From the IMG/VR virus record IMGVR_UViG_3300042400_000444: 64,000 bases of DNA; one strand, written 5' to 3'. This DNA comes from a virus. Taxonomy: Duplodnaviria; Heunggongvirae; Uroviricota; Caudoviricetes. The number at the start of each line of letters is the position of its first letter. The first letter of the stretch is position 1. A program made the position numbers and the translations under genes. Shown here piece after piece: positions 15,125-62,333 of this stretch. Under the pieces are notes generated by a model. It did not search any database and had not been told where the DNA came from. It saw only the letters and a list, made by a program, of their open reading frames with translations.

Positions 15125-15149
15125 AAGATAAATAATTAGATAAAGTGCT

Positions 15150-15411: not shown

Positions 15412-15428
15412 CATTTAAGGAGCCGAAG

Positions 15429-15766: not shown

Positions 15767-15849
15767 TTGTAGATAGTCCTGTTGGGCCAGGAGCCTAGTC
15801 ATGCTAGGTCAAGATCGCAACTTGTTGGGTTCGATTCCCAGTCTACAAT
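15767..15849 (+). tRNA. tRNA-like with apparent CAT anticodon and a long variable arm; no encoded CCA
   Basis: Perfect 7-bp acceptor TTGTAGA/TCTACAA. T-arm TTGGG-TTCGATT-CCCAG. Anticodon arm GCCTA-GTCATGC-TAGGT. 15-nt variable arm CAAG-ATCGCAA-CTTG. Confidence 0.45.
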
Positions 15850-15851
15850 TT

Positions 15852-15896
15852 AACAGGGCTCCTATCTATTGCCTACGGGGATAGCTTAGGAGTTAT
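15852..15896 (+). terminator. imperfect long hairpin followed by a T-rich tract (possible terminator or processing site)
   Basis: GCTCCTATCTAT...ATAGCTTAGGAG stem followed by TTATTTTATAA. Confidence 0.35.
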
Positions 15897-15903
15897 TTTA
15901 TAA

Positions 15904-15981
15904 CTCTCGTTCGCCTAGTCTGGTATGGCACTTGCTTTGGGAGCAAGAAGAACGTAGGTTCAAATCCTACACGAGAGACCA
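15904..15981 (+). tRNA. tRNA-Pro (anticodon TGG)
   Basis: Acceptor CTCTCGT/ACGAGAG, anticodon arm CTTGC-TTTGGGA-GCAAG, T-arm GTAGG-TTCAAAT-CCTAC, CCA. Confidence 0.7.
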
Positions 15982-16044
15982 ATTGTTACAACCGCTGATT
16001 TAAACTTAATTGCAGGCGGATAAAATGCTAAAGGAGGATTAATC

Positions 16045-16107
16045 ATGAACGAACATGATGTTGAGACATGGGGCTTTGGCTTCCCATCTTACGCAAGACA
16101 AAAATAG
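16045..16107 (+). CDS. 20-aa peptide ORF (MNEHDVETWGFGFPSYARQK) with a near-perfect Shine-Dalgarno sequence
   Basis: AAAGGAGG-N7-ATG. Convergent with, and 16 bp from, the 3' end of the class B radical-SAM gene. Confidence 0.3.
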   Translation: MNEHDVETWGFGFPSYARQK

Positions 16108-16122
16108 TACAGAGTAGTTAAG

Positions 16123-18192: not shown

Positions 18193-18213
18193 ATAAATTA
18201 AAGAGTGTATAAT
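18186..18213 (+). promoter_or_regulatory. sigma70-type promoter driving the start of the tRNA island
   Basis: TTGACA-N16-TATAAT. Confidence 0.55.
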
Positions 18214-18264
18214 AGCATTTGAAGTTAAGTAATACGCTCTTTAACAGTTTAGAAGTAGTACAAT

Positions 18265-18339
18265 ATCGCTATAGTTTATCGGTTAGAACAACAGGTTTTC
18301 ATCCTGTCGGGCGGAGTTCGACTCTCCGTAGCGATACCA
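18265..18339 (+). tRNA. tRNA-Glu (anticodon TTC)
   Basis: Acceptor ATCGCTA/TAGCGAT, anticodon arm ACAGG-TTTTCAT-CCTGT, T-arm CGGAG-TTCGACT-CTCCG, CCA. Confidence 0.7.
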
Positions 18340-19020
18340 TATTAAAGCACATTGTGAAGCACTATGTAAATAGTATCACGAGGGCCATGTAGTGAGAAGG
18401 CAGTAGCCAAGTCTGGGAAGGCAACTTGTTCGGGATGGAGTCTATAGGTAGGAAGTCATGATCCTACTGGACCGAGTCAGCAAGTCATACGTAGGTTCAA
18501 ATCCTACCTGCTAACATAATGTTTCACAGTGTGCTTTAATATGGTAGTATCAGTTATATGTGAGTCATACACGGGACTGGCGTAAGAAACACATTGGGGC
18601 TCGGAACCCCTGCACATATAACACAATGACACAAAGGTAGTTGCAATCTACCCGGCGTGGTCGCAGACGTATACGGTCTTTTCCGTTCAATTCGGAGTGT
18701 TATTGGATATACCATATAAAAACACATTCTTCAAAGAATACAGGGTTCAATTCCCGGCCGTTGATCACGGAACTGCCAAGGTGGTGAGTGTGTTTCTATA
18801 TGGTAGTAATGGCAGAGGCAAGGATTAATTACCCATGCTGAGCGACCTGGAAGCGGGTGGACAAACGTGACTGTGGGCCACTAAGGTAGTCAACATTACT
18901 CGCCATATAAAAGCACACTTAATGCGTAGGCCACGCAGAGTCATGGATGATAGCATTGCCCCGTAAGGAGCAGTGTCGGTGGGTTCAATTCCCGCATAGT
19001 GTGTTTCTATATGGTTATAT
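18336..19020 (+). repeat. non-coding block with three nested pairs of ~25-bp inverted repeats flanking short tRNA-fragment-like segments
   Basis: Arm consensus ACCATAT(A/T)AAA(G/A)CACA / TGTGTTTCTATATGGT. Plus-sense arms at 18336, 18708, 18903; reverse arms at 18520, 18781, 18993. No ORF of 60 aa or more on either strand. Confidence 0.5.
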
Positions 19021-19106
19021 GCTGTCGCGGTGCAGTAGGAGAGGCACGCTGGTCTGTAAAATCAGTCCCACTGGGTGAATAGGTTCGATTCCTATAGGCA
19101 GCACCA
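19021..19106 (+). tRNA. tRNA-Tyr (anticodon GTA), type II
   Basis: Acceptor GCTGTCG/AGGCAGC (6/7 pairs). Anticodon arm CTGGT-CTGTAAA-ATCAG. Long variable arm TCCCACTGGGTGA. T-arm ATAGG-TTCGATT-CCTAT. CCA. Confidence 0.65.
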
Positions 19107-19466
19107 AGAATTTGCAGAGCGCGGTGCTAGTCTAGCCTCGAGGCATAATCCAAGTTAGTTGCAACTAGCAACAGATTGTGAAAACTAGACAACAAGGTTC
19201 GATTCCTTACTGCATCTTATTTTATGTCGCAGTTCCAGTTACACTAATCTCTCAGTTAAAAGCTGTTAGTGTGTAAAGGATACGAGAAAGTCAACTTCTT
19301 CTGGGTAGACTGTGACGCCAAACACGAGGAGTGTTCACCTCTATAAAAACGAGCCAATATTTTTACACTAAAGGAAAAACAGTTATGAAGGTAACTAAAC
19401 TTTAGTGTCGTCTTTAATCCCATGTATGATTAAGGATAGGCACGTTAAACATCTTTATACATATAT

Positions 19467-19541
19467 GGGGGTATAATTCAATGGCTAGAATATCCGGCTT
19501 TTACCCGGACTATCAGAGTTCAAATCTCTGTGCCCTCACCA
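19467..19541 (+). tRNA. tRNA-Lys (anticodon TTT)
   Basis: Acceptor GGGGGTA/TGCCCTC with G-U pairs, anticodon arm TCCGG-CTTTTAC-CCGGA, T-arm CAGAG-TTCAAAT-CTCTG, CCA. Confidence 0.7.
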
Positions 19542-19655
19542 TAAGAAAGTATATTACTGACGCCTCAGAGAAGAGTTCCGGTAGCTCAGTATCGATTAAT
19601 AACTAAGTCAGCAGTTGGGTTCGCTGAATGTAGTGTACTTCCTTATGGTATCAAT

Positions 19656-19732
19656 GGTGACCGTAGCTCAGTTGGTAGAGTCCAGGATTGTGATTCCTGT
19701 TGTCGTGGGTTCGAGCCCCATCGGTCACCCCA
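19656..19732 (+). tRNA. tRNA-His (anticodon GTG) with extra 5' G(-1)
   Basis: G+GTGACCG/CGGTCAC, D-arm GCTC-AGTTGGTA-GAGT, anticodon arm CAGGA-TTGTGAT-TCCTG, CCA. Confidence 0.75.
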
Positions 19733-19790
19733 AGTTTTAATATGGCTTCCGTCCGTAGAATACTGCTTGCAGTCGGCTCGGAAGTTCTTT

Positions 19791-19868
19791 GGCACTTTAG
19801 CATAGCTGGCTTAATGCGCTACCCTGTCACGGTAGAGATCACGGATTCGAATTCCGTAAGTGTCGCCA
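19791..19868 (+). tRNA. tRNA-Asp (anticodon GTC)
   Basis: Acceptor GGCACTT/AAGTGTC, anticodon arm CTACC-CTGTCAC-GGTAG, T-arm ACGGA-TTCGAAT-TCCGT, CCA. Confidence 0.75.
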
Positions 19869-19874
19869 ACTTAT

Positions 19875-19948
19875 TCCGGTGTAGTATAATGGCAGTGCGA
19901 CGGTCTCCAAAACCGTTAGTGGGGGTTCGATTCCCTCCACCGGAGCCA
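19875..19948 (+). tRNA. tRNA-Trp (anticodon CCA)
   Basis: Acceptor TCCGGTG/CACCGGA, anticodon arm ACGGT-CTCCAAA-ACCGT, T-loop TTCGATT, CCA. Confidence 0.7.
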
Positions 19949-19962
19949 GTTTCAAATAGTGG

Positions 19963-19991
19963 TTGACAGCAAATATCAAAAATGCTACACT
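19963..19991 (+). promoter_or_regulatory. sigma70-type promoter inside the tRNA island
   Basis: TTGACA-N17-TACACT. Confidence 0.5.
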
Positions 19992-20021
19992 ATATAGATA
20001 GTAACAAATAAGTAAATGGAA

Positions 20022-20074
20022 GAAAGCCGTAACAATATGTATTCGAGGTTAGGAGAGTACGGCAAACCGTCCAA
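20022..20074 (+). ncRNA. conserved 52-nt structured element, copy 1 (second copy at 23301)
   Basis: GAAAGCcGTAACAaTATGTATTCGAGGTTAGGAGAGTACgGCAAACCG. The GCCGTA/TACGGC stem covaries with GCTGTA/TACAGC in copy 2. Could alternatively encode a 14-15-aa peptide MYSRLGEY(G/S)KP. Confidence 0.4.
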
Positions 20075-20168
20075 GGGTAGCTGATGCCTGTGGTGCAACT
20101 CCACCGTTGAAATCAGTCATGATTCTGCACATGATAACAGGCCTGTATTTGGCCGCAGAACTTTTATC

Positions 20169-20242
20169 GCGGTGGTGGGCTAATTGGCAAGCCGTAGGGC
20201 TCATAACCCTGAGACGAGGTTCGAATCCTCCGACCGCAACCA
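20169..20242 (+). tRNA. tRNA with CAT anticodon (Met/Ile2 class), slightly non-canonical
   Basis: D-arm GGCT-AATTGGCA-AGCC, anticodon arm TAGGG-CTCATAA-CCCTG, T-loop TTCGAAT. Acceptor GCGGTGG/CGACCGC has one G-G mismatch. 3' ACCA. Confidence 0.5.
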
Positions 20243-20260
20243 AATACACAGGGGAATAAC

Positions 20261-20428
20261 ATGGCAATTAAAAAAGCAAACTCAATGACTACACGTACAG
20301 GCAAACCTAGACTAGGTCCACTGAATTTAACCCAACTAAATACATTGTTGGATAAAACTAGCAAAGGTAAAGATAAAGCAAAACTCCGTAATAGAATTGC
20401 TGTATTGGAATCACGCTTAGTTAAATAA
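20261..20428 (+). CDS. small basic protein (55 aa)
   Basis: RBS CAGGGGAATAACATG. K/R-rich. Confidence 0.35.
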   Translation: MAIKKANSMTTRTGKPRLGPLNLTQLNTLLDKTSKGKDKAKLRNRIAVLESRLVK

Positions 20429-20434
20429 GTTTTT

Positions 20435-20519
20435 GCCGGGTTGCGCCGAATGGGATGGCACCTGACTTGTAATCAGGCTTCGTAAGATAGAGAGTGTTCG
20501 ATTCACTCACCCGGCACCA
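20435..20519 (+). tRNA. type-II-architecture tRNA (long variable arm, 3-bp D-stem) with apparent TGT (Thr) anticodon
   Basis: Acceptor GCCGGGT/ACCCGGC perfect. Anticodon arm CCTGA-CTTGTAA-TCAGG. Variable arm CTTCGTAAGATAGA. T-arm GAGTG-TTCGATT-CACTC. CCA. 85 nt. Confidence 0.55.
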
Positions 20520-20524
20520 GTAAT

Positions 20525-20599
20525 GCCCAGTTAGCAGAGTGGTAATGCGCCTCACTTGTAATGAGGATATCGGCGGTTCGATTCCGTCACTGGGCACCA
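20525..20599 (+). tRNA. tRNA-Thr (anticodon TGT)
   Basis: Acceptor GCCCAGT/ACTGGGC, anticodon arm CCTCA-CTTGTAA-TGAGG, T-arm GGCGG-TTCGATT-CCGTC, CCA. Confidence 0.7.
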
Positions 20600-20607
20600 A
20601 GTATTAA

Positions 20608-20692
20608 GCCTCTTTGGTGGAATTGGTATACACGTTGGTCTTAGAAGCCAATGCTGAAAGGCTTGAGAGTTCGAGTCTCTCAGGGGGCACCA
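20608..20692 (+). tRNA. tRNA-Leu (anticodon TAG), type II
   Basis: Acceptor GCCTCTT/AGGGGGC (G-U pairs), anticodon loop CTTAGAA, long variable arm, T-arm GAGAG-TTCGAGT-CTCTC, CCA. Confidence 0.65.
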
Positions 20693-20749
20693 AAAAATTT
20701 TATAGAGTAAAGTCTGATCGGTAAATACCCGTACAACGGAGATAAATTT

Positions 20750-21493
20750 ATGTTTGAATGGTATTGGGCGTTTGTATTCGGGTATATAGTACATACTATA
20801 ACAGTAATTGTAGTTTCAATTTTCCTGCATCGAATGTATGCACATAAGCACTTGTTATCCACGCCGGCATTTGATACAATGAGTCGAATTTGGTTATGGA
20901 TGGTAGGCGCATATTGGCCTAAAATTGCAAGAATATTTGCAGCAGTGCATAGAAAGCACCATGCTATGCCGGACACACTAGATGATCCACATACACCATG
21001 GATATATTCATGCCGTGAATTATTATTTCCTACGACAGACAGGGAAAAAGGCAAAGCATATTACATGCCGCCTGAAGAAAGAGATAGTATTGCAGGTGAT
21101 GTACCGGCATTCGATGATAAGTTGGATATATTCTTAATGAAGTATCTACCATACAGTAAGATACCATTGGTATTAGTATTCTTAACGTTATTTTCATGGC
21201 AAGGTGCTATAATTGGGTTTGTGTGGTTAACTATATCTCGGTACAGCGGAAGATTACATAATTGCGTATCGCACAAATATGGATATAGATGGCAACCAGC
21301 AAAAACAGAAGGTGACCGTTCAGTAAACTGCTTACCGATTGGGTTAGTATTCGGCGGTGAGGAATTAGGAGCCAATCATCATGATTATCCAGATTTGGTT
21401 AACTTTGCAATTAAGTGGTACGAATTTGATACAGGGTGGTATGTTGTTAAAGTATTAGAATTTTTTAAATTAGTAAAAATTGTTAAATCTTAA
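20750..21493 (+). CDS. membrane fatty-acid desaturase (stearoyl-CoA desaturase-like), paralogue 1
   Basis: His boxes HRMYAH, HRKHH(AMPD), NHHDYP. Hydrophobic N-terminal segments. Confidence 0.65.
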   Translation: MFEWYWAFVFGYIVHTITVIVVSIFLHRMYAHKHLLSTPAFDTMSRIWLWMVGAYWPKIARIFAAVHRKHHAMPDTLDDPHTPWIYSCRELLFPTTDREKGKAYYMPPEERDSIAGDVPAFDDKLDIFLMKYLPYSKIPLVLVFLTLFSWQGAIIGFVWLTISRYSGRLHNCVSHKYGYRWQPAKTEGDRSVNCLPIGLVFGGEELGANHHDYPDLVNFAIKWYEFDTGWYVVKVLEFFKLVKIVKS

Positions 21494-21638
21494 AGAAAAA
21501 ATTGCGAGTATGGTGGAATTGGTATACACAGTAAATGGTTGGAAATACCAATGGGTCAGCAAATAAAGGTAAACCCAAAAGTGAAGAGCATAAGAAAAAG
21601 ATTGCTGAATCAATAAAACAAAAATATGCTACAAGAAA

Positions 21639-21723
21639 TGCTCCGATGGCGTAATTGGTAGCCGCAATGGACTTAAAATTCATTATCGAAAGGTGTCCCG
21701 GTTCGACTCCGGGTCGGAGCACC
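21639..21723 (+). tRNA. tRNA-Leu (anticodon TAA), type II
   Basis: Acceptor GCTCCGA/TCGGAGC, anticodon arm ATGGA-CTTAAAA-TTCAT, long variable arm, T-arm CCCGG-TTCGACT-CCGGG, CCA. Confidence 0.7.
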
Positions 21724-21823
21724 AGAGTTTAGTTGCACAGTAAAAACACGAGTGATGGTGTGCGGGTTCAAATCCCGGTGGGGAGGTAAAAGCTCCCGGC
21801 TGCACTCAGACTAACAGTTTTAA

Positions 21824-21897
21824 AGCGGGATTAGTTTAATGGCAAAACTGGAGTTTTCCAAACTTCTGTCATCAGTTCGATTCTGATATCCCGCTCC
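21824..21897 (+). tRNA. tRNA-Gly (anticodon TCC)
   Basis: Acceptor GCGGGAT/ATCCCGC, D-arm GTTT-AATGGCA-AAAC, anticodon loop TTTCCAA, T-arm ATCAG-TTCGATT-CTGAT, CCA. Confidence 0.75.
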
Positions 21898-22173
21898 AAA
21901 CACTAGCTTTACACTTTGCGCTTTATCGAAAGTGGGTAATTGGCAATACCATAGCGCCAGGGCACACACGATGGTCTAGACCATGCCACAAGTCCCATTG
22001 CCGGGAGCCTTGAAAGTATCGTGGGTTATTTGTTGTTATATCCAAAAGATAACAGCTGGACAGGGTAACTACTCAGTTCTGGGCTAGGTGGTGCTAGTAG
22101 CAGAACACTTTACACTACAGCAATGTAGACGAACAGTATATATTATAGATTTACAAATTAGATAAGAAGTAAA

Positions 22174-22249
22174 TGGGGGTGTAGCTCATTTGGGAGAGCG
22201 CCTGCTTTGCAAGCAGGATGTAGCAAGTTCGATCCTTGTCACCTCCACC
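22174..22249 (+). tRNA. tRNA-Ala (anticodon TGC)
   Basis: Acceptor GGGGGTG/CACCTCC with G3-U70, D-arm GCTC-ATTTGGGA-GAGC, anticodon arm CCTGC-TTTGCAA-GCAGG, CCA. Confidence 0.75.
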
Positions 22250-22255
22250 ATATTA

Positions 22256-22331
22256 TAGGAGATTAGCTCATTTGGTAGAGCAGTGCCCTTACAAGGCAAA
22301 GGCGACTGGATCGTAACCAGTATCTCCTACC
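22256..22331 (+). tRNA. tRNA-Val (anticodon TAC), unusual T-loop ATCGTAA
   Basis: Acceptor AGGAGAT/ATCTCCT, D-arm GCTC-ATTTGGTA-GAGC, anticodon loop CTTACAA, T-arm ACTGG-ATCGTAA-CCAGT, CCA. Confidence 0.6.
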
Positions 22332-22345
22332 AGTTTTAAGTTTTA

Positions 22346-22424
22346 TTCCGCAGAATCCGAGCTAGGCGCACGGACTTGACTGTTAATCAATGATTAGCTG
22401 GGTTCGAATCCCAGATGCGGAGCC
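22346..22424 (+). tRNA. tRNA-Asn (anticodon GTT)
   Basis: Acceptor TCCGCAG/ATGCGGA (6/7), D-stem TCCG/CGGA, anticodon loop CTGTTAA, T-arm CTGGG-TTCGAAT-CCCAG, CCA. Confidence 0.6.
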
Positions 22425-22482
22425 AATATTATTTGGTAGAGCAATAGACTGAGCTAAATAAACATATAACGGAGTTATTGAT

Positions 22483-23106
22483 ATGTTTACTTGTGTGTAT
22501 TGTTCTAAAGTATGTAAAAATGATAATAGTCATCGAAATCATGAAAGACAATGTCCTAAAAATCTTAACAGGATTTATAAAAATGGAATGACTGGTAAAA
22601 CGGCATGGAACAAAGGACTTACAGTTGCTACTGATGAACGAGTGGCTAAAAATGCTATAGCAATTAAAGCAAATGCTAAAGAAATTGGTAAATGTAAAGA
22701 TCCAGAGAAGGAAGTATTACGTAGACAAAAATTGTCAATCGCTGCAAAAAGAAGCGGATTTGGCGGATACAGAGAAAACGCAGGACGCAGTAAAAAATTT
22801 AGAGTGTTAGATTCTTACGGTAAAGAAACAGTTTTACAAAGCACATATGAATTAAAGTGTAGTGAAATATTAAATGAGTTGGGCATTGAATGGATTCGAC
22901 CCAAAGCATTAAAATATGATAATAAAAATTATTTTGCGGACTTTTACTTACCTAAGATAGATATGTATCTTGATCCTAAGAATAGTTATAAAGCAAGATT
23001 AGATTTAGAAAAAATAAACAAAGTTATAGAACAAAATAATGTTAAAGTTGTAATCTTATTAGAAGAACACCTAACATTAGAACATATTAAACAGCTCTGT
23101 AGTTAA
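22483..23106 (+). CDS. putative homing-endonuclease-like protein (zinc finger plus NUMOD-like segment)
   Basis: N-terminal CVYCSKVCKNDNSHRNHERQC zinc finger. GKTAWNKGLT is NUMOD3-like. AT-rich gene inside the tRNA island. Its 3' end overlaps the start of tRNA-Ile. Confidence 0.4.
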   Translation: MFTCVYCSKVCKNDNSHRNHERQCPKNLNRIYKNGMTGKTAWNKGLTVATDERVAKNAIAIKANAKEIGKCKDPEKEVLRRQKLSIAAKRSGFGGYRENAGRSKKFRVLDSYGKETVLQSTYELKCSEILNELGIEWIRPKALKYDNKNYFADFYLPKIDMYLDPKNSYKARLDLEKINKVIEQNNVKVVILLEEHLTLEHIKQLCS

Positions 23107-23166
23107 ATGGTATAACGGACGCTTGATAAGCGTTTATTACAAGTTCAATTCTTGTCAGAGCTACCA
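23093..23166 (+). tRNA. tRNA-Ile (anticodon GAT)
   Basis: Acceptor AGCTCTG/CAGAGCT, D-arm GTTA-AATGGTA-TAAC, anticodon arm GACGC-TTGATAA-GCGTT, T-arm ACAAG-TTCAATT-CTTGT, CCA. First 14 nt lie inside the upstream CDS. Confidence 0.7.
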
Positions 23167-23300
23167 AGTATTCCAACCGCATCACGTTTAGGGTGAAGTA
23201 GGGCGTGTTAACAAAACCCTGTAAGATCAAAAATACCTATCAAGGCAAGGAGGAATCACAGCGCAAGCTGAAGACGACTGCGGTGACTTGCTAAAAGGGA

Positions 23301-23353
23301 GAAAGCTGTAACATTATGTATTCGAGGTTAGGAGAGTACAGCAAACCGCCCAA
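23301..23353 (+). ncRNA. conserved 52-nt structured element, copy 2
   Basis: GAAAGCtGTAACAtTATGTATTCGAGGTTAGGAGAGTACaGCAAACCG. Compensatory C>T/G>A relative to copy 1 preserves the 6-bp stem. Confidence 0.4.
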
Positions 23354-23476
23354 CTCATAATACACCAGACCTCAACCTCGCAAGAGACAATTCTGGTTCC
23401 GCTGACGCGAAAAGAGGATGGGCTGCGCTCACGGGGTTTGTTAGGTTCCTGTCACATGAATACCTAACACTTATTT

Positions 23477-23564
23477 GGAGGATTGGCTGAGTGGTTTAAG
23501 GCAGCAGTCTTGAAAACTGTCGAGCTGAAAGGCTCCGTGAGTTCGAATCCCACATCCTCCGCCA
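23477..23564 (+). tRNA. tRNA-Ser (anticodon TGA), type II
   Basis: Acceptor GGAGGAT/ATCCTCC, anticodon arm GCAGT-CTTGAAA-ACTGT, variable arm CGAGC-TGAAAG-GCTCCG, CCA. Confidence 0.65.
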
Positions 23565-23569
23565 AATAC

Positions 23570-23598
23570 TTGACAACGTTCTAAAACGGTGTTATAAT
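23570..23598 (+). promoter_or_regulatory. sigma70-type promoter
   Basis: TTGACA-N17-TATAAT. Confidence 0.55.
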
Positions 23599-23618
23599 AG
23601 TTTTATAGTAAGAAATTA

Positions 23619-23712
23619 GGAGAGCTGGCCGAGTGGTCGAAGGCACTTCCCTGCTAAGGAAGCATACGGGCTTAACCCTGTATCGAGGGTTCGAATCTCA
23701 CCGCTTCCGCCA
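23619..23712 (+). tRNA. tRNA-Ser(GCT)-like with non-pairing acceptor stem (possible pseudogene)
   Basis: D-arm and anticodon arm CTTCC-CTGCTAA-GGAAG, long variable arm, T-loop TTCGAAT. The 5' end GGAGAGC does not pair with the 3' end CGCTTCC. Ends GCCA. Confidence 0.35.
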
Positions 23713-23730
23713 ATTTTATTAAGGACTGAT

Positions 23731-24147
23731 ATGTTGCGCACTGTGGTATTATCGTTGGCACTTTTGTTTACAATTACAGCACATGCTGAAGATTGGGCAG
23801 TAGTAACTGATTCGGGTGATGGAGTACGTTTAATTGCTGATGTTGAATCAGTAAAGGTTAAAGAATACAAAAAAGGTACTAAAAAAGGTACAGGTATATT
23901 TGTCAATATGCAATATGTAAACACCGACCTTATATTTGTATCTGCTATTGATGTTGAAGAATGCTTATTAAAGCAACGTGGCACATTAATTAATGCTTAC
24001 CCAAGCGGTGAATCCAATACATACTTTTGGGACATTAGCGGTGGCAAGATGTATGATGCACAAGGGCAATGGTTATGCGGTGCTGTATATGGCATACTTA
24101 AAAATAATAAAAAACAACCAAAACCTAAACCTAAAGTAACAATGTAA
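23731..24147 (+). CDS. secreted hypothetical protein (signal peptide)
   Basis: N-terminal MLRTVVLSLALLFTITAHA signal. 138 aa. KPKPK C-terminal tail. Confidence 0.45.
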   Translation: MLRTVVLSLALLFTITAHAEDWAVVTDSGDGVRLIADVESVKVKEYKKGTKKGTGIFVNMQYVNTDLIFVSAIDVEECLLKQRGTLINAYPSGESNTYFWDISGGKMYDAQGQWLCGAVYGILKNNKKQPKPKPKVTM

Positions 24148-24157
24148 TATAGCATTC

Positions 24158-24247
24158 GGAGAGTGGGCCGGACGGTAAGGCACCACCCTGCTAAGGTGTA
24201 CAACTCTTTAAACAGTTGACAGGGTTCGACTCCCTGACTCTCCGCCA
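24158..24247 (+). tRNA. tRNA-Ser (anticodon GCT), type II
   Basis: Acceptor GGAGAGT/ACTCTCC perfect, anticodon loop CTGCTAA, variable arm CAACT...AGTTG, T-arm AGGG-TTCGACT-CCCT, CCA. Confidence 0.7.
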
Positions 24248-24301
24248 TAAAATTGAGGATAACTAACCCTCAACTAAGTATGTATAATACACGAGAATTT
24301 A

Positions 24302-25642
24302 ATGAACGATAATAAAAAAATATGGCCTATTAAATCAGAGACATCGTGCTATTTAAAATGGTCATGGAGCACTATTTTCCTCACTAAAGGTACCACAGCC
24401 AGTTGTCATCGAACTGTACATTCAGATATTGATATTAATAATTTTAATAATTTTCATAATACTCCAAAAAAATTAGATGATCGAAAGCGTATGCTAGCTG
24501 GCAACTGGCCGGAAGAGAGCGAGTCTGATAAATTTGGAATTCCTGGATGTACTTATTGTAAAGATATAGAAGATCATGGTGGCACAAGTGATCGTACAGT
24601 GCAATTACGTCATCTCGAAGCAATGAGTGCAACACAAAATAATATATTGCCCGTAGAATTATTAACAGATCCAACAGCAACGGAAGTAACTCCTACAATA
24701 ATTGAAGTTTATTTTAATAATGTGTGCAACATGGCTTGTTTGTACTGCGGCCCTCATTTTAGTACTATGTGGGAAGAAGAAAATCGGAGATTTGGCATTA
24801 CAGAAGACGACGGTATATTAAATACACCGTTATGGAAACGTAATCCTACTCAATATAGTACGTTGCGTGATGGACTATTTACTTGGTTACGTGAACACGG
24901 AGATAAGATTTGGAACTTCGGTATGTTAGGTGGCGAACCTTTCTTCCAACAAGAATTTGACATGGTATTAGATCATTGGGAAAATTATCCTAATCCAAAT
25001 TTACTATTAACTATAGTTAGTAATTTAAAAATAGAACATACTCGATTTGTTGGTTACATTCAACGATTAAAACGTATGGTAGAAACTGGTAAGATTAAAA
25101 AATTAAATCTTAGTGCTAGTTTAGATTGTTGGGGACCCCCAGCAGAATATATTAGATGGGGATTAAATCTAATAGAGTGGGAGAAGAATTTTAATTATCT
25201 AGCACAAGCGGGGTTCGATGAATGGATTGTTTTGAATGTCAATATTACCATCACTCCATTAAGCATAAGGACATTGCCGGACTTGATTTATAAATTAAAC
25301 GAATTGGATAAACTTAGAGACCCAACACGTCATATTTGTATTAGTTTTATGCACGTTAATTCGCCGACACAACTAAACCCATTATGGTTTGGTGCTGGTG
25401 TATTTACAGAAGATATGATTAAGGTAGTGGATGCAATGCCGACAGGAACACAATACCAGCGTGATTATAAAGAATATATGCAAGGTATTGCTAACAGTAT
25501 AGAACAGACTCCACGAAATCCTGCCGCTATTCTTATGTTAGAAACATATCTAAATGAAATGGACCAGCGCAGGGGAACACATTGGCCAGAATTATTTCCG
25601 TGGCTAGTGAGACAATTTGAGTTAGCCCATTCGGAAATATAA
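24302..25642 (+). CDS. radical SAM enzyme (paralogue B)
   Basis: CNMACLYC is a CxxxCxxC motif. GGEPFF. N-terminal SCYLKW...ASCH motif shared with the ORF at 8818. 446 aa. Confidence 0.8.
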   Translation: MNDNKKIWPIKSETSCYLKWSWSTIFLTKGTTASCHRTVHSDIDINNFNNFHNTPKKLDDRKRMLAGNWPEESESDKFGIPGCTYCKDIEDHGGTSDRTVQLRHLEAMSATQNNILPVELLTDPTATEVTPTIIEVYFNNVCNMACLYCGPHFSTMWEEENRRFGITEDDGILNTPLWKRNPTQYSTLRDGLFTWLREHGDKIWNFGMLGGEPFFQQEFDMVLDHWENYPNPNLLLTIVSNLKIEHTRFVGYIQRLKRMVETGKIKKLNLSASLDCWGPPAEYIRWGLNLIEWEKNFNYLAQAGFDEWIVLNVNITITPLSIRTLPDLIYKLNELDKLRDPTRHICISFMHVNSPTQLNPLWFGAGVFTEDMIKVVDAMPTGTQYQRDYKEYMQGIANSIEQTPRNPAAILMLETYLNEMDQRRGTHWPELFPWLVRQFELAHSEI

Positions 25643-25672
25643 CACAATTCATTATTAAACACAGGAGCATTA

Positions 25673-25777
25673 TATGTTATTTCTAATCTTAAAAAGCGCA
25701 GTAGTTGTTGCAATAGCATTTTGCGCATTAATTCTAGAAGTATTCATATTAGTGTGGATCGCAAACAAACTAAAATA
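25673..25777 (+). CDS. 34-aa hydrophobic peptide (single predicted TM helix) directly downstream of radical SAM paralogue B
   Basis: RBS ACAGGAGCATTATATG. MLFLILKSAVVVAIAFCALILEVFILVWIANKLK. Confidence 0.3.
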
Positions 25778-25785
25778 GTTTAATT

Positions 25786-25876
25786 GCTCCTGTAGTTTAA
25801 CGGTAAAACAGCGGGCTTATACCCCGTAACAACAGATAATTGGCTGATCAAGGTTCGAATCCTACCACTTCCGCCA
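25786..25876 (+). tRNA. tRNA-like (apparent TAT anticodon, 21-nt variable region) with non-pairing acceptor ends
   Basis: D-arm GTTT-AACGGTA-AAAC, anticodon arm GCGGG-CTTATAC-CCCGT, T-loop TTCGAAT. The 3' tail CACTTCCGCCA has no complementary 5' strand. Confidence 0.3.
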
Positions 25877-26004
25877 AAACAACCGAGAACGCCTCTTAAC
25901 AATGCGCAACATCAAACGTGGATTTACACGTGACGCTATAGGACGCTATAGTCTACGGTCCTCCGGGAGGATAACTCCCAACTTATTCTAAAAGTATCAG
26001 TAAT

Positions 26005-26080
26005 ACCCTCTTCGCCAAGTTGGTAAGGCAACAGGTTTTGATCCTGTCATTCGGTGGTTCGAGTCCATCAGGGGGTGCCA
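26005..26080 (+). tRNA. tRNA-Gln (anticodon TTG)
   Basis: Acceptor ACCCTCT/AGGGGGT, anticodon arm ACAGG-TTTTGAT-CCTGT, T-arm GGTGG-TTCGAGT-CCATC, CCA. Confidence 0.65.
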
Positions 26081-26086
26081 AACAAT

Positions 26087-26163
26087 GTATGTGTGTAGCT
26101 GAATGGATAAGCTGCGGATTGCAACCCCGTATTATGCAGGTTCGACCCCTGTCACATACTCCA
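26087..26163 (+). tRNA. tRNA-Cys (anticodon GCA), probable
   Basis: Acceptor GTATGTG/CACATAC perfect, anticodon loop TTGCAAC, T-arm GCAGG-TTCGACC-CCTGT, CCA. Confidence 0.55.
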
Positions 26164-26173
26164 CTTTCAATAT

Positions 26174-26250
26174 AGAGATGTAGCATAGTGGCCTAATGCA
26201 CTTGCTTCATACGCAAGCTACCGTAGGTTCAAATCCTACCATCTCTACCA
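26174..26250 (+). tRNA. tRNA-Met (anticodon CAT)
   Basis: Acceptor AGAGATG/CATCTCT, D-arm GCAT-AGTGGCCTA-ATGC, anticodon arm CTTGC-TTCATAC-GCAAG, T-arm GTAGG-TTCAAAT-CCTAC, CCA. Confidence 0.75.
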
Positions 26251-26256
26251 AACAAT

Positions 26257-26326
26257 GCCCCCGCCGATGGACGGACTTTGGCCTTCGAAGCCGAAAGAAG
26301 CGGTTCGATACCGTTCGGGGGCTCCA
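26257..26326 (+). tRNA. tRNA-Arg (anticodon TCG) with reduced D-arm (70 nt)
   Basis: Acceptor GCCCCCG/CGGGGGC, anticodon arm TTGGC-CTTCGAA-GCCGA, T-arm AGCGG-TTCGATA-CCGTT, CCA. Confidence 0.5.
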
Positions 26327-26334
26327 ACAATTAT

Positions 26335-26458
26335 GTGCGGGTGCTGGAACAGGGATACAGCTCAGCGGCAGTTGAGGCAAAGGGTTCGAGTCCCTTGGAA
26401 GTTCGCAAGACTTTTAGTATGGTACTGTTGGAGGCTCGAGTCCTTCCTCGCACACCAA
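26335..26458 (+). tRNA. ~124-nt tRNA-like locus with a good acceptor stem and two T-arm-like motifs (candidate intron-containing or fused tRNA)
   Basis: Acceptor GTGCGGG/CTCGCAC pairs 7/7 with one G-U. 3' T-arm GGAGG-CTCGAGT-CCTTC. Internal AAGGG-TTCGAGT-CCCTT. CCA. Confidence 0.3.
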
Positions 26459-26463
26459 ATAAA

Positions 26464-26530
26464 ATGTTACTGCTCAGTAACATTTGCCGTCAAAACCGGC
26501 TAAATCAGTTCAAATGTTACTGAGCAGTAA
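26464..26530 (+). promoter_or_regulatory. two copies of an 18-20-bp dyad-symmetric site ATGTTACTG-NN-CAGTAACAT, centres ~50 bp apart
   Basis: 26464-26483 ATGTTACTGCTCAGTAACAT; 26514-26530 ATGTTACTGAGCAGTAA. Lies between a tRNA-like locus and tRNA-Gly. Confidence 0.4.
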
Positions 26531-26539
26531 GATTAAAAT

Positions 26540-26616
26540 GCGGGATTAGCTCAGCTTGGTAGAGCACGACGTTGCCAACGTCGTTGTCAGGAGTTCAAAT
26601 CTCCTATCCCGCTCCA
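26540..26616 (+). tRNA. tRNA-Gly (anticodon GCC)
   Basis: Acceptor GCGGGAT/ATCCCGC, D-arm GCTC-AGCTTGGTA-GAGC, anticodon arm CGACG-TTGCCAA-CGTCG, T-arm AGGAG-TTCAAAT-CTCCT, CCA. Confidence 0.8.
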
Positions 26617-26624
26617 AATTTCAA

Positions 26625-26653
26625 TTGACAAAATGTCAAAACGAATGTATAAT
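26625..26653 (+). promoter_or_regulatory. sigma70-type promoter
   Basis: TTGACA-N17-TATAAT. Confidence 0.55.
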
Positions 26654-26679
26654 ACACTTAATTAAAAAAGGAGGCTATT

Positions 26680-27078
26680 ATGTCTTACAACTATAAAGAA
26701 GTAGAATTTAACGAATTAAAAGGTAAAGTGTTGACAAGCGTAGTAGTCAACGAATACAACGATGAAATTGTGTTTAAAACTACAGACGGCGAAGTATATA
26801 CTTTGTATCACGCACAAGATTGTTGTGAGTCAGTAGAAATTGAATCTATCGTTGGTGACTTGTCTGACTTAGTTGGCGAAGAAATCTTACTGGCAGAAGA
26901 AGCACAAAACTTATTTGACTTGATTAAATCTGCAGGCGAAGTAGAAGAAGATGAATACGGTTCACACACATGGACATTTTATAAATTAGCAACTCGCAAA
27001 GGGTACGTTGACATCAGATGGTATGGTTCAAGCAACGGTTACTATTCAGAGGAAGTTTCTTTTAAAAGAGAGCAGTAA
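26680..27078 (+). CDS. hypothetical acidic protein
   Basis: RBS AAAGGAGGCTATTATG. 132 aa. Confidence 0.5.
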   Translation: MSYNYKEVEFNELKGKVLTSVVVNEYNDEIVFKTTDGEVYTLYHAQDCCESVEIESIVGDLSDLVGEEILLAEEAQNLFDLIKSAGEVEEDEYGSHTWTFYKLATRKGYVDIRWYGSSNGYYSEEVSFKREQ

Positions 27079-27079
27079 C

Positions 27080-27442
27080 ATGTCACACAGTGAATTAGAT
27101 TGGTTAGAATACAATGGGTGGGCAGGTCAGGATACTATTCCGCAACTTGCCCATGAAGCATTAGTACGATACTTTGTGCATGGCATGGAACCGGGTAGTT
27201 TTTTAACTGCTATGCTCGAGGGTGATTTGTTTACTGCGGCGTTTAAAGCAGACTTTGCAAACGCAGGAGCAATGGCAAAAATTGCTAAATGGATTGTACA
27301 TCATGCACCACACAATAGTTATGGTAATGCTGACATAGTTAAAAAATGGTGCAGTGACCCGACTATACGAGCAGACTTCGATAAGAAAGTGTTGTGGCAT
27401 TATTTACACACAGATGGAAAACCAAAAGTATATGACTTCTAA
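27080..27442 (+). CDS. hypothetical protein
   Basis: ATG at 27080 with RBS AAAGAGAGCAG. The six-frame ORF begins at 27008 and overlaps the upstream gene. Confidence 0.45.
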   Translation: MSHSELDWLEYNGWAGQDTIPQLAHEALVRYFVHGMEPGSFLTAMLEGDLFTAAFKADFANAGAMAKIAKWIVHHAPHNSYGNADIVKKWCSDPTIRADFDKKVLWHYLHTDGKPKVYDF

Positions 27443-27596
27443 ATTAAAACCGCAATGGATTAAAGATAAAGAAGCACTACAAACTATTAAGCCAGAAGAA
27501 CTTATCATTGTAGGAAAGATGGGAGTTGCTGGCGTAATAGATGGTAAACTTCCAAACGGTGAAGTGTACAATAGAAACATTAGAAAGAAACGATGA
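27354..27596 (+). CDS. hypothetical small protein (likely starts at internal ATG 27432)
   Basis: ORF overlapping the upstream gene. Basic C-terminus. Confidence 0.3.
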   Translation: MTRLYEQTSIRKCCGIIYTQMENQKYMTSKLKPQWIKDKEALQTIKPEELIIVGKMGVAGVIDGKLPNGEVYNRNIRKKR

Positions 27597-27835
27597 CATA
27601 CTATTGTGAGCTAAACAATGATGAGAATATAATACGCACAATGGGTGGACATAGAATAGTTGGGCGGTATGTAATAGTCGCCAGCCAATTCATTCCAACC
27701 GGGCTTACGTATAGTGCAAAAAACATTAATGATGGTATGCGATGGTACAAGCATCGAGAGAAAGCGAATTCGGACTTAACAGAAAATGAATGCAAAGCAC
27801 TAACTTTTCAAATATTAAAAAGTGAGACTTGGTGA
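27593..27835 (+). CDS. hypothetical protein
   Basis: 80-aa ORF, ATGA-coupled. Confidence 0.35.
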   Translation: MTYYCELNNDENIIRTMGGHRIVGRYVIVASQFIPTGLTYSAKNINDGMRWYKHREKANSDLTENECKALTFQILKSETW

Positions 27836-28218
27836 TGGAATTTACAATCGACCCAGAGTACTTAACAAGCGTAACTATTCATAAAGAGTGGAACACGTAT
27901 ACACACAATGGTCGCGTACCTACAGCAGAAGAACTTATTTTAATTATTCAAGGCAAGGGCGAGTGTTCGACTACAAGTTCAGAAGATCATCCAGAGTTTG
28001 CTAAGTTGCGCGAGCAGTTGGGTGCAGATGGATATATTCATATCCAGCGAGGTTGGTGGAATGGTGATGAGGTCTTAAAACCGTTTAAACTTAACGGAAG
28101 AAAATTTAAAGTAGGAGCACAGTTTAGCAGCGGTAGTGCAATGGGTACACACCTTGCTGTAAGAGCTAAACACCCCGAGTTATATAAGGATGAATACGAT
28201 GATGAAACCGTGGATTGA
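27829..28218 (+). CDS. hypothetical protein
   Basis: 129-aa ORF. Confidence 0.45.
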   Translation: MVMEFTIDPEYLTSVTIHKEWNTYTHNGRVPTAEELILIIQGKGECSTTSSEDHPEFAKLREQLGADGYIHIQRGWWNGDEVLKPFKLNGRKFKVGAQFSSGSAMGTHLAVRAKHPELYKDEYDDETVD

Positions 28219-28684
28219 AAACGTTAGTATGAAAGACATACAAGTAGGCGAGCACTTTGATGCTGGCACTAATTCTATGCTTATTCAAATTGTTGACCCT
28301 ATTACTCTTTTTCCAACACCAAAGCATACATTTAAAGAAGTGCATCAGTTTAAATTTTTAGATGCAGAAGACTCTGATGTTGCAGAGTACGGTGAAGAGC
28401 CATTGATTAGCGATCAGCAAGCAGAAGCAATTTTGCAGTTACTACAACGTGCGCTGGCCAACCATATGAACATTGTTGTACATTGTCACGCTGGTTTATG
28501 TCGTAGTGGTGCAGTAGTAGAGATTGGTGTTATGATGGGCTTTAGAGATACTGAAAAGTTTCGTAGTCCCAACTTACGGGTTAAACACAAATTAATGAAG
28601 TTGCTCGGGCTAATACACGACCCAGACGAGGAACATAACTGGCGTGATGATTATAGACATCACTTAACTAAAAGCAATATGTAA
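28190..28684 (+). CDS. protein tyrosine / dual-specificity phosphatase
   Basis: VHCHAGLCRSG is an HCx5R(S/T) P-loop signature. Confidence 0.65.
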   Translation: MNTMMKPWIENVSMKDIQVGEHFDAGTNSMLIQIVDPITLFPTPKHTFKEVHQFKFLDAEDSDVAEYGEEPLISDQQAEAILQLLQRALANHMNIVVHCHAGLCRSGAVVEIGVMMGFRDTEKFRSPNLRVKHKLMKLLGLIHDPDEEHNWRDDYRHHLTKSNM

Positions 28685-28695
28685 AGGAGTAGTAC

Positions 28696-28890
28696 ATGAT
28701 TAAGTTATCCCCAACGGGTAAAATATCCAAAAATGCTAACAAGGAACTTTGTTTAGATACTAAGTTTACTGTTAGCATTGATGTACGTGACGTAACGTAT
28801 GCTAACATTGATGAAAAGATTGCTGAGCTTATTGCAGAGGCACACAAAGTCAAACAAGTACTCGAACAAAACATAGTAACATCAAATTAA
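28696..28890 (+). CDS. hypothetical small protein
   Basis: RBS AAAGGAGTAGTACATG. Confidence 0.4.
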   Translation: MIKLSPTGKISKNANKELCLDTKFTVSIDVRDVTYANIDEKIAELIAEAHKVKQVLEQNIVTSN

Positions 28891-28898
28891 AAGAATAC

Positions 28899-28974
28899 GC
28901 AACCTTAGCTCATCTGGTAGAGCACCTGCTTGAAGCGCAGGGTGTGCTTGGTTCAAGTCCAAGAGGTTGCACCA
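28899..28974 (+). tRNA. tRNA-Phe (anticodon GAA)
   Basis: Acceptor GCAACCT/AGGTTGC, D-arm GCTC-ATCTGGTA-GAGC, anticodon arm CCTGC-TTGAAGC-GCAGG, T-arm CTTGG-TTCAAGT-CCAAG, CCA. Confidence 0.8.
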
Positions 28975-61257: not shown

Positions 61258-61276
61258 CCAAATAATCAAAAATCAT

Positions 61277-61310
61277 TGACTTTATACTATAAATAGTGTA
61301 GTATTGTAAT
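61277..61310 (+). promoter_or_regulatory. sigma70-type promoter upstream of iscU
   Basis: TTGACT-N17/18-TAGTAT. Confidence 0.4.
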
Positions 61311-61329
61311 ATACTATTGGAGGTATTAT

Positions 61330-61715
61330 ATGAGCTATTCAGCAGCGGTCTTGGACCATTATGAAAATCCAAGAAATGTAGGATCTTTAGATAAGGAGAA
61401 TGCGCAAGTTGGGACCGGAATCGTCGGTGCCCCAGCTTGCGGATGACAGGTGACGTCATGAAGTTACAAATTCAAGTCGAAGATGGTATTATAATCGATG
61501 CAAAGTTTAAAACATACGGATGTGGGTCAGCAATTGCTAGTTCTAGCCTAGTAACAGAATTGCTTAAAGGTATGACATTAGATGAAGCATACACAATTAA
61601 AAACTCAGCAATAGCAGAAGAACTTGCATTACCCCCAGTTAAGATACATTGTAGTGTATTAGCAGAAGATGCTATTAAAGCGGCTATTGCAGATTATAGG
61701 AATAAACAAGGATAA
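61330..61715 (+). pseudogene. iscU: iscU (Fe-S cluster scaffold) interrupted by an 8-nt insertion causing a frameshift inside the GAPACGD motif
   Basis: Frame 1 reads MSYSAAVLDHYENPRNVGSLDKENAQVGTGIVGAPACG-stop. The other frame continues DVMKLQIQVEDGIIIDAKFKTYGCGSAIASSSLVTE...LPPVKIHCSVLAEDAIKAAIADY, near-identical to E. coli IscU. RBS GGAGGTATTATATG. Confidence 0.6.
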
Positions 61716-61861
61716 GAAATGGCTTGCCCATTACACAATACAGAATATCAACAATATTGTTGTTTACATGATAAACATCAAGAGGATAATACATTTGAAC
61801 AATGCGAATATCAACAGGCATGTAGCTATCTTATTAACAATCAACAAGGGGTCGAAATAGA

Positions 61862-62017
61862 ATGGAAGAGGAAATCGAAAGCCCGTGCGTCGGCGCATGC
61901 GGATTATTTGATGGAGTTTGCCGCGGTTGTGGTAGAACAACAGACGAAGTAGTAGAATGGTACAATTTTACAAACGAACAAAAACAAGCAGTATTAGATA
62001 GGATATTCAATGATTAG
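61862..62017 (+). CDS. small Cys-rich ORF with a DUF1289-like motif (putative Fe-S protein)
   Basis: MEEEIESPCVGACGLFDGVCRGCGRTTDEVVEWYNFTNEQKQAVLDRIFND fits C.G.C...C.GC.RT..E...W. Stop overlaps the iscA start. Alternative overlapping ORF 61719-61952 not excluded. Confidence 0.35.
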   Translation: MEEEIESPCVGACGLFDGVCRGCGRTTDEVVEWYNFTNEQKQAVLDRIFND

Positions 62018-62333
62018 TTTAACTGAACTTGCTGCAGAGAAGATTAAGAAAAGCATTACTGCTCGCGGAGCAAACACGCTGGGTATTAAGATTGGCATCA
62101 AAACTGCTGGCTGTAGTGGTATGAGTTATGTTCTTGAGTTTGTTGATCAACTAACCGCAGATGATATTGAATATAAATGTCATGATGTTAGTATTTTTAC
62201 AACACCAAAAGACTTGGTGTATGTTGATGGCCTAAAAATGGATTGGAAACGTGAAGGGCTTAATGAGGGATTTGAATTTATTAATCCAAATGCTACCGGC
62301 GAATGTGGCTGTGGTGAAAGTTTTACAGTTTAG
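62010..62333 (+). CDS. iscA: A-type Fe-S carrier (IscA/ErpA/HesB family)
   Basis: GCSGMSY ... NPNATGECGCGESF with the three conserved Cys. Confidence 0.7.
   Translation: MISLTELAAEKIKKSITARGANTLGIKIGIKTAGCSGMSYVLEFVDQLTADDIEYKCHDVSIFTTPKDLVYVDGLKMDWKREGLNEGFEFINPNATGECGCGESFTV

Follow-up and report, generated by a model that had tools for sequence, protein, structure and literature searches.

How can a phage make IscU from an iscU gene whose reading frame is broken in one of its ligand motifs? This question is raised by a 64,000-nucleotide (nt) stretch of phage DNA (IMG/VR record IMGVR_UViG_3300042400_000444; hereafter the window), in which an iron-sulphur (Fe-S) assembly module starts at position 61330 of the plus strand with an iscU that is interrupted by a stop codon and an 8-nt offset. 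An original prediction, made from the letters alone, had described this anatomy and had named sequencing or assembly error, recent pseudogenisation and recoding as possible explanations. Our analysis bears out the anatomy and supports recoding, whereas error is excluded and pseudogenisation is very unlikely. We consider it probable that iscU carries a short translational bypass ("stop-hop") cassette, and that this cassette belongs to a homing-endonuclease mobile element.

The first open reading frame (ORF; 61330-61446) terminates after ...GAPACG at a TGA (61444-61446), and the frame that continues with DVMKLQI..., different from that of the first ORF, is open through 61715. The junction (61435-61460, plus strand) reads GCT TGC GGA TGA CA GGT GAC GTC ATG and, owing to the TGA and the 8-nt offset, there is no single continuous iscU frame in the window. 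The Pfam NifU_N profile matches the two pieces consecutively, with profile positions 2-35 in the first (E 1.7e-10) and 34-124 in the second (E 2.4e-35), and the alignment of the second piece to the solved IscU chains 1q48, 2l4x and 3lvl (E ~4e-38) starts exactly at residue 39 and extends to residue 126. The two frames are therefore one collinear IscU, split in the ligand motif of Cys37 by 8 nt that follow Gly38 and precede Asp39, as had been predicted. Once joined, this IscU has 125 residues and is otherwise complete, its translations holding the ligands Cys37 (APACG), Asp39 (DVMK), Cys63 (TYGCGS) and His105-Cys106 (KIHCS); the gap separates Cys37 from Asp39.

The 5' segment of the gene (codons 1-38, Met1 to Gly38, Cys37 included; 61330-61443, plus strand), which carries the first NifU_N match, ends with GGA (Gly38; 61441-61443), the proposed take-off codon. 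This is followed by the TGA (61444-61446; context TGA-C), which we propose to occupy the ribosomal A site at take-off, by a 2-nt spacer within the coding gap (CA; 61447-61448) and by GGT (61449-61451), the proposed landing codon, after which decoding would restart at GAC (Asp39, 61452). The 3' segment (61452-61715) encodes Asp39 to Gly125 and the stop codon, and includes Cys63 (YGCG) and the His-Cys pair.

A DNA contig from an independent lake metagenome run covers 61381-61483 without a gap and provides the independent sequence over the junction that the original prediction had called for, while the exact junction of the window recurs in many IMG/VR contigs from different samples. With so many independent contigs and runs agreeing on the junction, an error of sequencing or assembly is excluded. 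The stretch 61381-61483 is likewise gapless in an RNA-library contig that keeps the 8 nt, and this single contig, of depth 2, is a weak hint that they persist in RNA, against their removal at the RNA level. In one lake run (X1), a second contig agrees with the window up to 61442 and then continues with another junction type, GGT TAG A GGA; several alleles of the cassette therefore co-occur in one community.

Conservation of the junction and its RNA signals

In a protein-guided search, 80 phage iscU loci were retrieved from IMG/VR; eight have the interruption at the same point, with six junction sequences between them. Four pattern scans extended this sample. The first, which required both Gly codons, gave 74 contigs, 73 of them with IscU; the second, which required neither the stop nor the landing codon, returned the same set plus one 6-nt form and two odd forms, all its remaining hits being chance matches outside IscU. 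The third demanded only a stop after Gly38 and a downstream ATGAA, with no G-D-V, and added one new IscU allele (L241), further new hits being chance matches. The fourth demanded only the upstream arm of a hairpin described below and a stop, and yielded at least 120 loci; every locus among the matches listed has GGN GAY GTN after the gap, in a scan that placed no requirement downstream. The degenerate patterns also produced many chance hits in GC-rich contigs, which were sorted out by translation. The one contig of the first scan without IscU, L130, with a 28-nt "gap" and an internal hairpin, was considered as an intermediate resembling phage T4 gene 60 and was rejected as a chance match in a gene other than iscU.

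More than 120 IMG/VR phage contigs thus have 6-10 extra bases at the same iscU site, and all but six of the interrupted contigs show a Gly codon, a stop, 0-4 nt, a second Gly codon and GAY GTN. They include 81 distinct haplotypes with 28 junction strings, and all of these have the two Gly codons, the stop immediately after the first and a spacer of 0-4 nt. Inserts are most often of 7 nt (41 haplotypes), followed by 8 nt (18), 9 nt (16), 6 nt (3) and 10 nt (3); the stop is TGA in 40, TAG in 26 and TAA in 15, with TGAC as the commonest tetranucleotide (30). Identical upstream sequences are found paired with 7-nt TGA gaps and with 9-nt TAG gaps. The frame after the gap is open at 114 of 120 among the matches listed, from an unfiltered set of at least 120 loci. 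One of the six others is L131 (IMGVR_UViG_3300005077_000572; 3400-3700), whose interrupted iscU has the junction GGT TAG AACC GGC and an intein-like insert directly after the Cys63 codon (...KTYGC|FVGNTYVNTP...); with it, one gene would have two kinds of selfish element in its conserved ligand motifs. In-frame gaps (6 and 9 nt; e.g. L099, L106 and L182) have TAG in 18 of 19 haplotypes, out-of-frame gaps mostly TGA or TAA. The TAG preference may reflect lineage, or a mixed strategy of readthrough and hop; no sign of TAG reassignment was found in the long ORFs of loci with in-frame TAG gaps.

The interruption appears to be confined to this gene and to phages. A scan of 185,579 bacterial and archaeal species, each represented by a single genome, with a pattern that needed ATGAA after the gap gave chance hits only and no interrupted iscU. 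Likewise, the whole window and 2.28 Mb of relatives' loci contain the signature in no gene but iscU, other hits being spurious and nearly all in unrelated GC-rich contigs. On both strands of the window, the junction is the sole site at which a sense codon and a stop are followed within 7 nt by a like codon, with long open frames to either side and a strong fold upstream. IscU is too short and too conserved for a protein tree to resolve gains and losses of the interruption.

Concerning RNA structure, an mRNA hairpin of 16 bp directly precedes the stop (61403-61441, plus strand); its lower helix has 11 bp and its upper helix 5 bp, with a bulge of 2 nt between them. The first G of the take-off Gly codon takes part in its last pair, so that the hairpin spans -38 to +1 relative to that codon, a position from which a 5' stem-loop could pull mRNA. 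No take-off stem-loop lies inside the coding gap itself, which is only 6-10 nt long. The segment 61385-61460 (76 nt, with the hairpin and a small 3' stem) folds at -28.9 kcal/mol (z -3.3). For the 48 nt that end with the upstream Gly codon, the mean folding energy is -24.9 +/- 2.2 kcal/mol over 31 distinct interrupted alleles and -13.3 +/- 4.0 over 68 uninterrupted ones. The 31 share a single hairpin structure, with 95.4% of cells paired, a value reached by none of 500 shuffles, and pairing falls below 40% when the pairing partner is shifted. Paired positions covary: pair 12-42 is A-U in 14 alleles, C-G in 13, U-A in three and G-C in one, never unpaired, and pair 15-39 shows five pair types, again with none unpaired. 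Uninterrupted alleles forced onto the hairpin are 63.3% paired, the level of shuffles. Invariant and variable G-U pairs indicate that the structure is one of the sense-strand RNA. By these comparisons the hairpin is real and specific to interrupted alleles.

In L036 (2956-3003) the gap seems to have been lost recently and precisely, since this uninterrupted allele still has the whole hairpin. A further 5-bp stem is possible at 61443-61459 of the window (ATGAC/GTCAT), where it encloses the landing codon as a by-product of the TGACGTCA palindrome; it is absent from alleles with GAT GTA and is therefore not conserved.

A second signal is a Shine-Dalgarno-like GGAG (61395-61398, plus strand), 4 nt 5' of the hairpin base in the window and 3-5 nt across alleles. 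Of 40 distinct upstream haplotypes from interrupted alleles, 39 have it at -46/-45 relative to the take-off codon; of 62 from uninterrupted alleles, one does.

Both halves of the gene bear the mark of selection. The ratio of non-synonymous to synonymous substitution rates (dN/dS), obtained from anchored, indel-free blocks among interrupted alleles, is 0.089 upstream (a conserved block of 11 codons, DHYENPRNVGx), 0.077 in the hairpin codons and 0.082 downstream. A test within the clade that has the window's junction (GGA TGA CA GGY) gave 0.05 over the 82 codons after the gap, at synonymous distances (dS) of 0.1-0.7; the window and L001, for instance, differ at 21 synonymous and three non-synonymous codons. 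On these estimates both halves of iscU are under strong purifying selection. Because the two halves (dN/dS 0.05-0.09) are so constrained and dedicated RNA signals are conserved with them, a pseudogene, recent or otherwise, is very unlikely.

The probable upstream endonuclease and the genomic setting

In most interrupted loci, a ~200-aa ORF lies directly upstream of iscU and often overlaps its start. In the window, its slot is a 72-nt spacer between a virion-protein-like gene and iscU (61258-61329, plus strand), and a tblastn search did not find the endonuclease gene in the window. The ORF has a CxxC...C...C motif and WNKG repeats, and D-H...N...N residues are invariant in 51 sequences. Its look-alikes in the ESM Atlas are viral HNH/NUMOD3 clusters, and distant relatives (33-38% identity) are free-standing ORFs in T4-like phages of Acinetobacter and Klebsiella, such as Acj61p177, which lies between gp18 and gp19 of Acj61. 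A profile of the family gave no match to PDB sequences. Two other ORF types occupy the same slot: a second family (L115:3539-4261; L008) has NUMOD3 above the Pfam cutoff, and a third type (L155:1953-2702) joins the same N-terminal region to a DUF559 endonuclease domain, also above the cutoff, which we take to be Vsr-like. Motifs, relatives and model together make the upstream ORF a probable HNH-type homing endonuclease.

The association of this ORF with the gap is strong. Of the distinct loci for which 850 nt or more of upstream sequence is available, 85 are interrupted, comprising 56 with a full endonuclease ORF, six with a remnant and 23 with neither, the window being one of these 23, in all of which the frames are intact; the 68 uninterrupted loci comprise two, none and 66, respectively. 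An endonuclease or remnant is thus present at 62 of 85 interrupted versus 2 of 68 uninterrupted loci (Fisher's exact p = 1.2e-20). In L023 (2301-3010), an endonuclease stands beside an uninterrupted iscU that has three substitutions in the otherwise invariant GMVGAPACG and reads GLTGSPACG; such substitutions may be an alternative route to immunity of the target site.

Presence of the element is patchy between near-identical genomes, and flanking markers are co-converted with it. In L156, whose flanks are 97-100% identical to the window, an endonuclease ORF of ~615 nt separates the upstream spacer from iscU. The identity of L115 to the window reaches 88-97% over 61341-61460 only and is about 65% elsewhere, with ~55-72% in the flanks and 67% right after the gap, while L002, an uninterrupted close relative of the window, shows the reverse identity pattern. 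In addition, one contig from a lake has an uninterrupted junction that lacks the hairpin, followed by a 3' part with 1 difference from the window in 156 bases. In these alignments the mosaic tracts end, and the recombination breakpoints lie, at the gap. From its distribution, the interruption is part of a widespread mobile cassette and not a private mutation of the window phage.

Downstream of iscU, the module continues with a small Cys-rich protein (61862-62017, plus strand), predicted from its Cys motifs and identified here as DUF1289 (PF06945, E 3.8e-16), and with an IscA-type A-type Fe-S carrier (62010-62333, plus strand; PF01521, Fe-S_biosyn, E 6.7e-18), which is intact as had been stated. 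The DUF1289 gene is syntenic in many relatives, and iscA is syntenic at interrupted and uninterrupted loci alike. Between iscU and these genes, ~242-252 nt of the window (61680-61930) are missing from the contigs of other strains, some of which have 89 different letters instead; this strain-variable insert is common only to the closest relatives (L081, L102 and L104), and a Cys-rich ORF of 77 codons (61719-61952) lies in the variable stretch and overlaps the start of DUF1289.

The phage origin of the module is confirmed by the gene content of the window, which includes a large terminase, virion proteins, helicases, one of them DnaB-like, and a radical-SAM protein, together with 27 tRNA genes within ~15 kb (14015-28974), four of them Met-CAT. 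Among those called by ARAGORN are tRNA-Gly (UCC) at 21825-21898 on the plus strand, which would decode the take-off GGA and might thereby have a role in the hop, and tRNA-Gly (GCC) at 26540-26616. The nearest virus record is a 114-kb fragment rated 33% complete, and related contigs reach 330-525 kb, so that the phage belongs to a jumbo-phage lineage. Runs that contain the stretch are lake and freshwater metagenomes from many studies.

A proposed stop-hop and its rivals

Inserts of 6, 7, 8, 9 and 10 nt place the two halves of iscU in every possible frame relation, so that only a mechanism indifferent to frame can explain them all, and no single mechanism other than a hop accommodates the three relations. 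In the course of events that we propose, in which the hop, its efficiency and the endonuclease target are what we infer, the ribosome would reach Gly38 (GGA, 61441-61443) with the TGA in the A site, where it would be decoded slowly. The upper 5 bp of the hairpin (3' strand at -17 to -13) would then be just beyond the mRNA exit, the 3' arm of the 11-bp lower helix (-10 to +1) still within the ribosome. The peptidyl-tRNA-Gly would release GGA, and zipping of the lower helix would draw the mRNA 5'-ward; full zipping could move the mRNA over as much as ~11 nt, and the hops that the gaps call for are of 6-10 nt. The tRNA would re-pair on the next GGN (GGT, 61449-61451), decoding would restart at Asp39 and the product would be a normal IscU of 125 residues, a single polypeptide across both frames. 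The GGAG by the hairpin base may pair with 16S rRNA and help to set the landing. This geometry agrees with the zipper-motor model in the literature, and that the hairpin acts as a motor pulling the mRNA is suggested by analogy with T4 gene 60 (PMC5009743). As with T4 MobA and gene 60, the gap would disrupt the target of the upstream endonuclease, so that an allele bearing the endonuclease would be immune and uninterrupted alleles would be cut and converted; the window phage itself has the cassette and no endonuclease.

Several observations weigh against this reading. Both Gly codons are GGN in 81 of 81 haplotypes, and their third bases are wobble-compatible in 46; in the other 35, including the window (GGA to GGT), a purine stands against a pyrimidine, and one ordinary tRNA-Gly would therefore re-pair with only two of three bases. 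A hop in these alleles would need a P site that accepts pairing at two of three bases, or a tRNA-Gly able to read any of the four Gly codons. Five contigs have a GGT TGTT GGA variant (L160, L164, L172, L176 and L191) with the Cys codon TGT instead of a stop after the take-off codon; its upstream sequence is as in the GGT TAG TTA GGA type, from which it looks derived through loss of two A's. A landing Gly is missing from L187 (GGT TGT TGA C GAT). The TGA of the window is overlapped by an ATG at 61443 that starts the downstream frame (M-T-G-D-V...), and this allele, taken alone, may use coupled re-initiation and give a two-piece product. Gene conversion that recurs from intact alleles could make purifying selection look stronger than it is. 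Finally, the upstream ORF matches Pfam HNH only below the cutoff (E 0.02-0.04), and an AlphaFold model of the endonuclease (mean predicted local distance difference test score 80), compared by Foldseek and VIA-align, has its best fold matches among HNH proteins with weak scores (4h9d, Z 4.7; Foldseek E 0.65), followed by further weak matches to Cas9 HNH domains and colicin DNases.

The alternative that survives best, although we judge it unlikely, is a split gene, in which termination-reinitiation would give a 38-aa N-terminal peptide and a C-terminal protein of 87-90 aa that assemble non-covalently, the hairpin and GGAG serving the coupling. Phage genes split by homing elements can indeed give functional two-piece enzymes (10.1101/2022.08.31.505936), but here the break would fall inside the cluster-binding loop, between Cys37-Gly38 and Asp39. 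The ATGA overlap that opens the downstream frame is found in the window and in the GGA TGA CT GGA type, whereas 7-nt types have no overlapping ATG in the right frame. Met41 is kept 9-13 nt after the stop in most alleles, but it is Leu (CTT) in 12 of 81 haplotypes that also lack any in-frame ATG, GTG or TTG within 20 codons after the gap, and re-initiation at a standard start is therefore not available to these. The constant Gly codons on both sides of the gap would be left unexplained.

We also hold it improbable that the cassette is a selfish scar that inactivates an iscU dispensable to the phage, the host having its own, and that conservation only reflects recent repeated invasion through gene conversion. 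Such a scar would have no reason to keep a covarying hairpin, GGAG and a strict Gly-stop-Gly arrangement over 28 junction types, even though the cassette is mobile and mosaic and the insertion state differs between close relatives. The downstream codons are the recipient's native sequence, as a scar would have them, but their frame is open in 114 of 120 among the matches listed (at least 120 loci), with a dN/dS of 0.05 within one junction clade, and the 23 distinct endonuclease-free interrupted loci retain intact frames.

Conventional recoding, allele by allele, is more doubtful still. It would require three unrelated mechanisms in near-identical cassettes, namely a +1 shift for 7 and 10 nt, a -1 or +2 shift for 8 nt and readthrough for 6 and 9 nt, with 2-3 extra residues after Gly38. 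In prfB, +1 frameshifting occurs at an A-site stop preceded by a Shine-Dalgarno-like motif, which the cassette resembles, but its GGAG is 46 nt upstream, too distant for a prfB-like action, GGA is unable to re-pair at +1, and there is no slippery heptamer. Readthrough could find support in the TAG of all in-frame gaps except one, but TAG is not reassigned, and variable extra residues would fall in the ligand loop. Lastly, a sequencing or assembly error or a private recent frameshift in the window phage, for which the bare frame break and nothing else speaks, can practically be dismissed in view of the identical junction in many independent contigs and runs and of more than 120 contigs interrupted at the same site.

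Comparison with known systems

Full-text searches on phage iscU with frameshifting or bypassing, on Fe-S genes of jumbo phages and on coding gaps with homing endonucleases gave no description of this element; phage-encoded IscU is itself already known as an auxiliary gene (PMC5332604). A 2016 review knew of no natural in-frame stop-hop, stop-hops being known from synthetic constructs and natural short bypasses long expected (PMC5009743). We lean, a little less firmly than towards the cassette itself, to the joint view that this is the first natural family of short-range programmed stop-hops, through which a homing-endonuclease element places an immunity-conferring gap into the best-conserved motif of a phage Fe-S scaffold gene with the protein unchanged, and that the stop-hop signal is compact and portable, with three parts: GGAG, a zipper hairpin on the take-off codon, and Gly-stop-N0-4-Gly.

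Programmed translational bypassing has so far rested on the T4 gene 60 family and on the byps of yeast mitochondria. The iscU family adds dozens of natural variants, with gaps of 6-10 nt, three stops, matched and unmatched landings and one stopless form, and their shared covarying 5' hairpin offers a natural test of whether mRNA pairing at the ribosome exit drives bypassing. If the reading holds, bypassing in the style of gene 60 would be no one-off, but a recurrent strategy of selfish elements with a second, independent homing endonuclease travelling with a bypass signal, and its minimal version would suit mechanistic study; it would also point to a general means by which selfish DNA could tag essential motifs and leave the gene functional. 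In freshwater jumbo phages, the auxiliary genes for Fe-S assembly are a target of mobile elements, one allele also having an intein-like insert. For annotation, interrupted phage iscU genes should be joined, and recorded neither as pseudogenes nor as two ORFs.

According to the account of the 1987 constructs in PMC5009743, synthetic stop-hops resemble iscU in that a peptidyl-tRNA hops over a stop to a like codon a few bases on, and the 6-nt forms of iscU (GGT TAG GGC and GGT TGA GGA) correspond to the +6 hop of that type. As described there, the synthetic hops are artificial and of low efficiency, whereas the iscU junction is natural and conserved, with dedicated stimulatory elements. The byps of Magnusiomyces capitatus mitochondria are, like the iscU gaps, short non-coding inserts within genes that are tolerated through bypassing, with a codon match that is often two of three (PMC5009743). 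There are ~81 of them per genome, mRNA context seems not to matter to them, and they depend on an unused codon in the A site and on the relaxed decoding of mitochondria, whereas the iscU gap is at one site in one gene and comes with a stop codon, GGAG and a specific hairpin. In length, byps range from 27 to 55 nt. As for the endonuclease, the free-standing homing endonucleases of T4-like phages likewise occupy intergenic slots, overlap the start of the next gene and are present or absent between near-identical genomes; in the iscU-upstream ORF, known here from sequence, the HNH motif is only weakly detected.

The closest parallel is T4 gene 60 with MobA, whose established elements are a stop with matched codons on either side and a 5' stem-loop that pulls the mRNA as it completes (PMC5009743; 10.1101/2022.08.31.505936). 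As in iscU, a Gly take-off codon has a stop immediately 3' of it and a Gly landing codon right before the codon at which decoding resumes, the upper part of a 5' stem-loop is outside the ribosome at take-off, and there is a Shine-Dalgarno-like element; the site lies within a highly conserved motif, and is linked to a free-standing HNH-type endonuclease, with patchy spread and some lineages that keep the gap without the endonuclease. Nuclease swapping, reported for gene 60 cassettes, is echoed by at least three endonuclease types in the iscU slot. The differences are, however, substantial. The gene 60 gap is of 50 nt, whereas the 6-10 nt of iscU leave no room for a take-off stem-loop or internal stops; the iscU hairpin is strongly conserved with covariation, whereas that of gene 60 is not conserved between clades; and GGAG precedes the iscU hairpin, whereas the Shine-Dalgarno-like element of gene 60 is inside the gap. 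Take-off and landing pairs remain wobble-compatible in the gene 60 family (10.1101/2022.08.31.505936), whereas in iscU the third-base match is often absent, and the upstream peptide, where the gene 60 type has a nascent-peptide stimulator, is ordinary IscU sequence. The host gene of the gene 60 family is a topoisomerase subunit, the endonuclease of the iscU cassette lies, unlike MobA, upstream of the interrupted gene, and its nearest relative in an isolate phage is between gp18 and gp19 of Acj61 and not at gene 60. Set apart by its host gene, by gap size and by the position of its endonuclease relatives, the iscU cassette is treated here as a functional analogue of gene 60, and not as its homologue.

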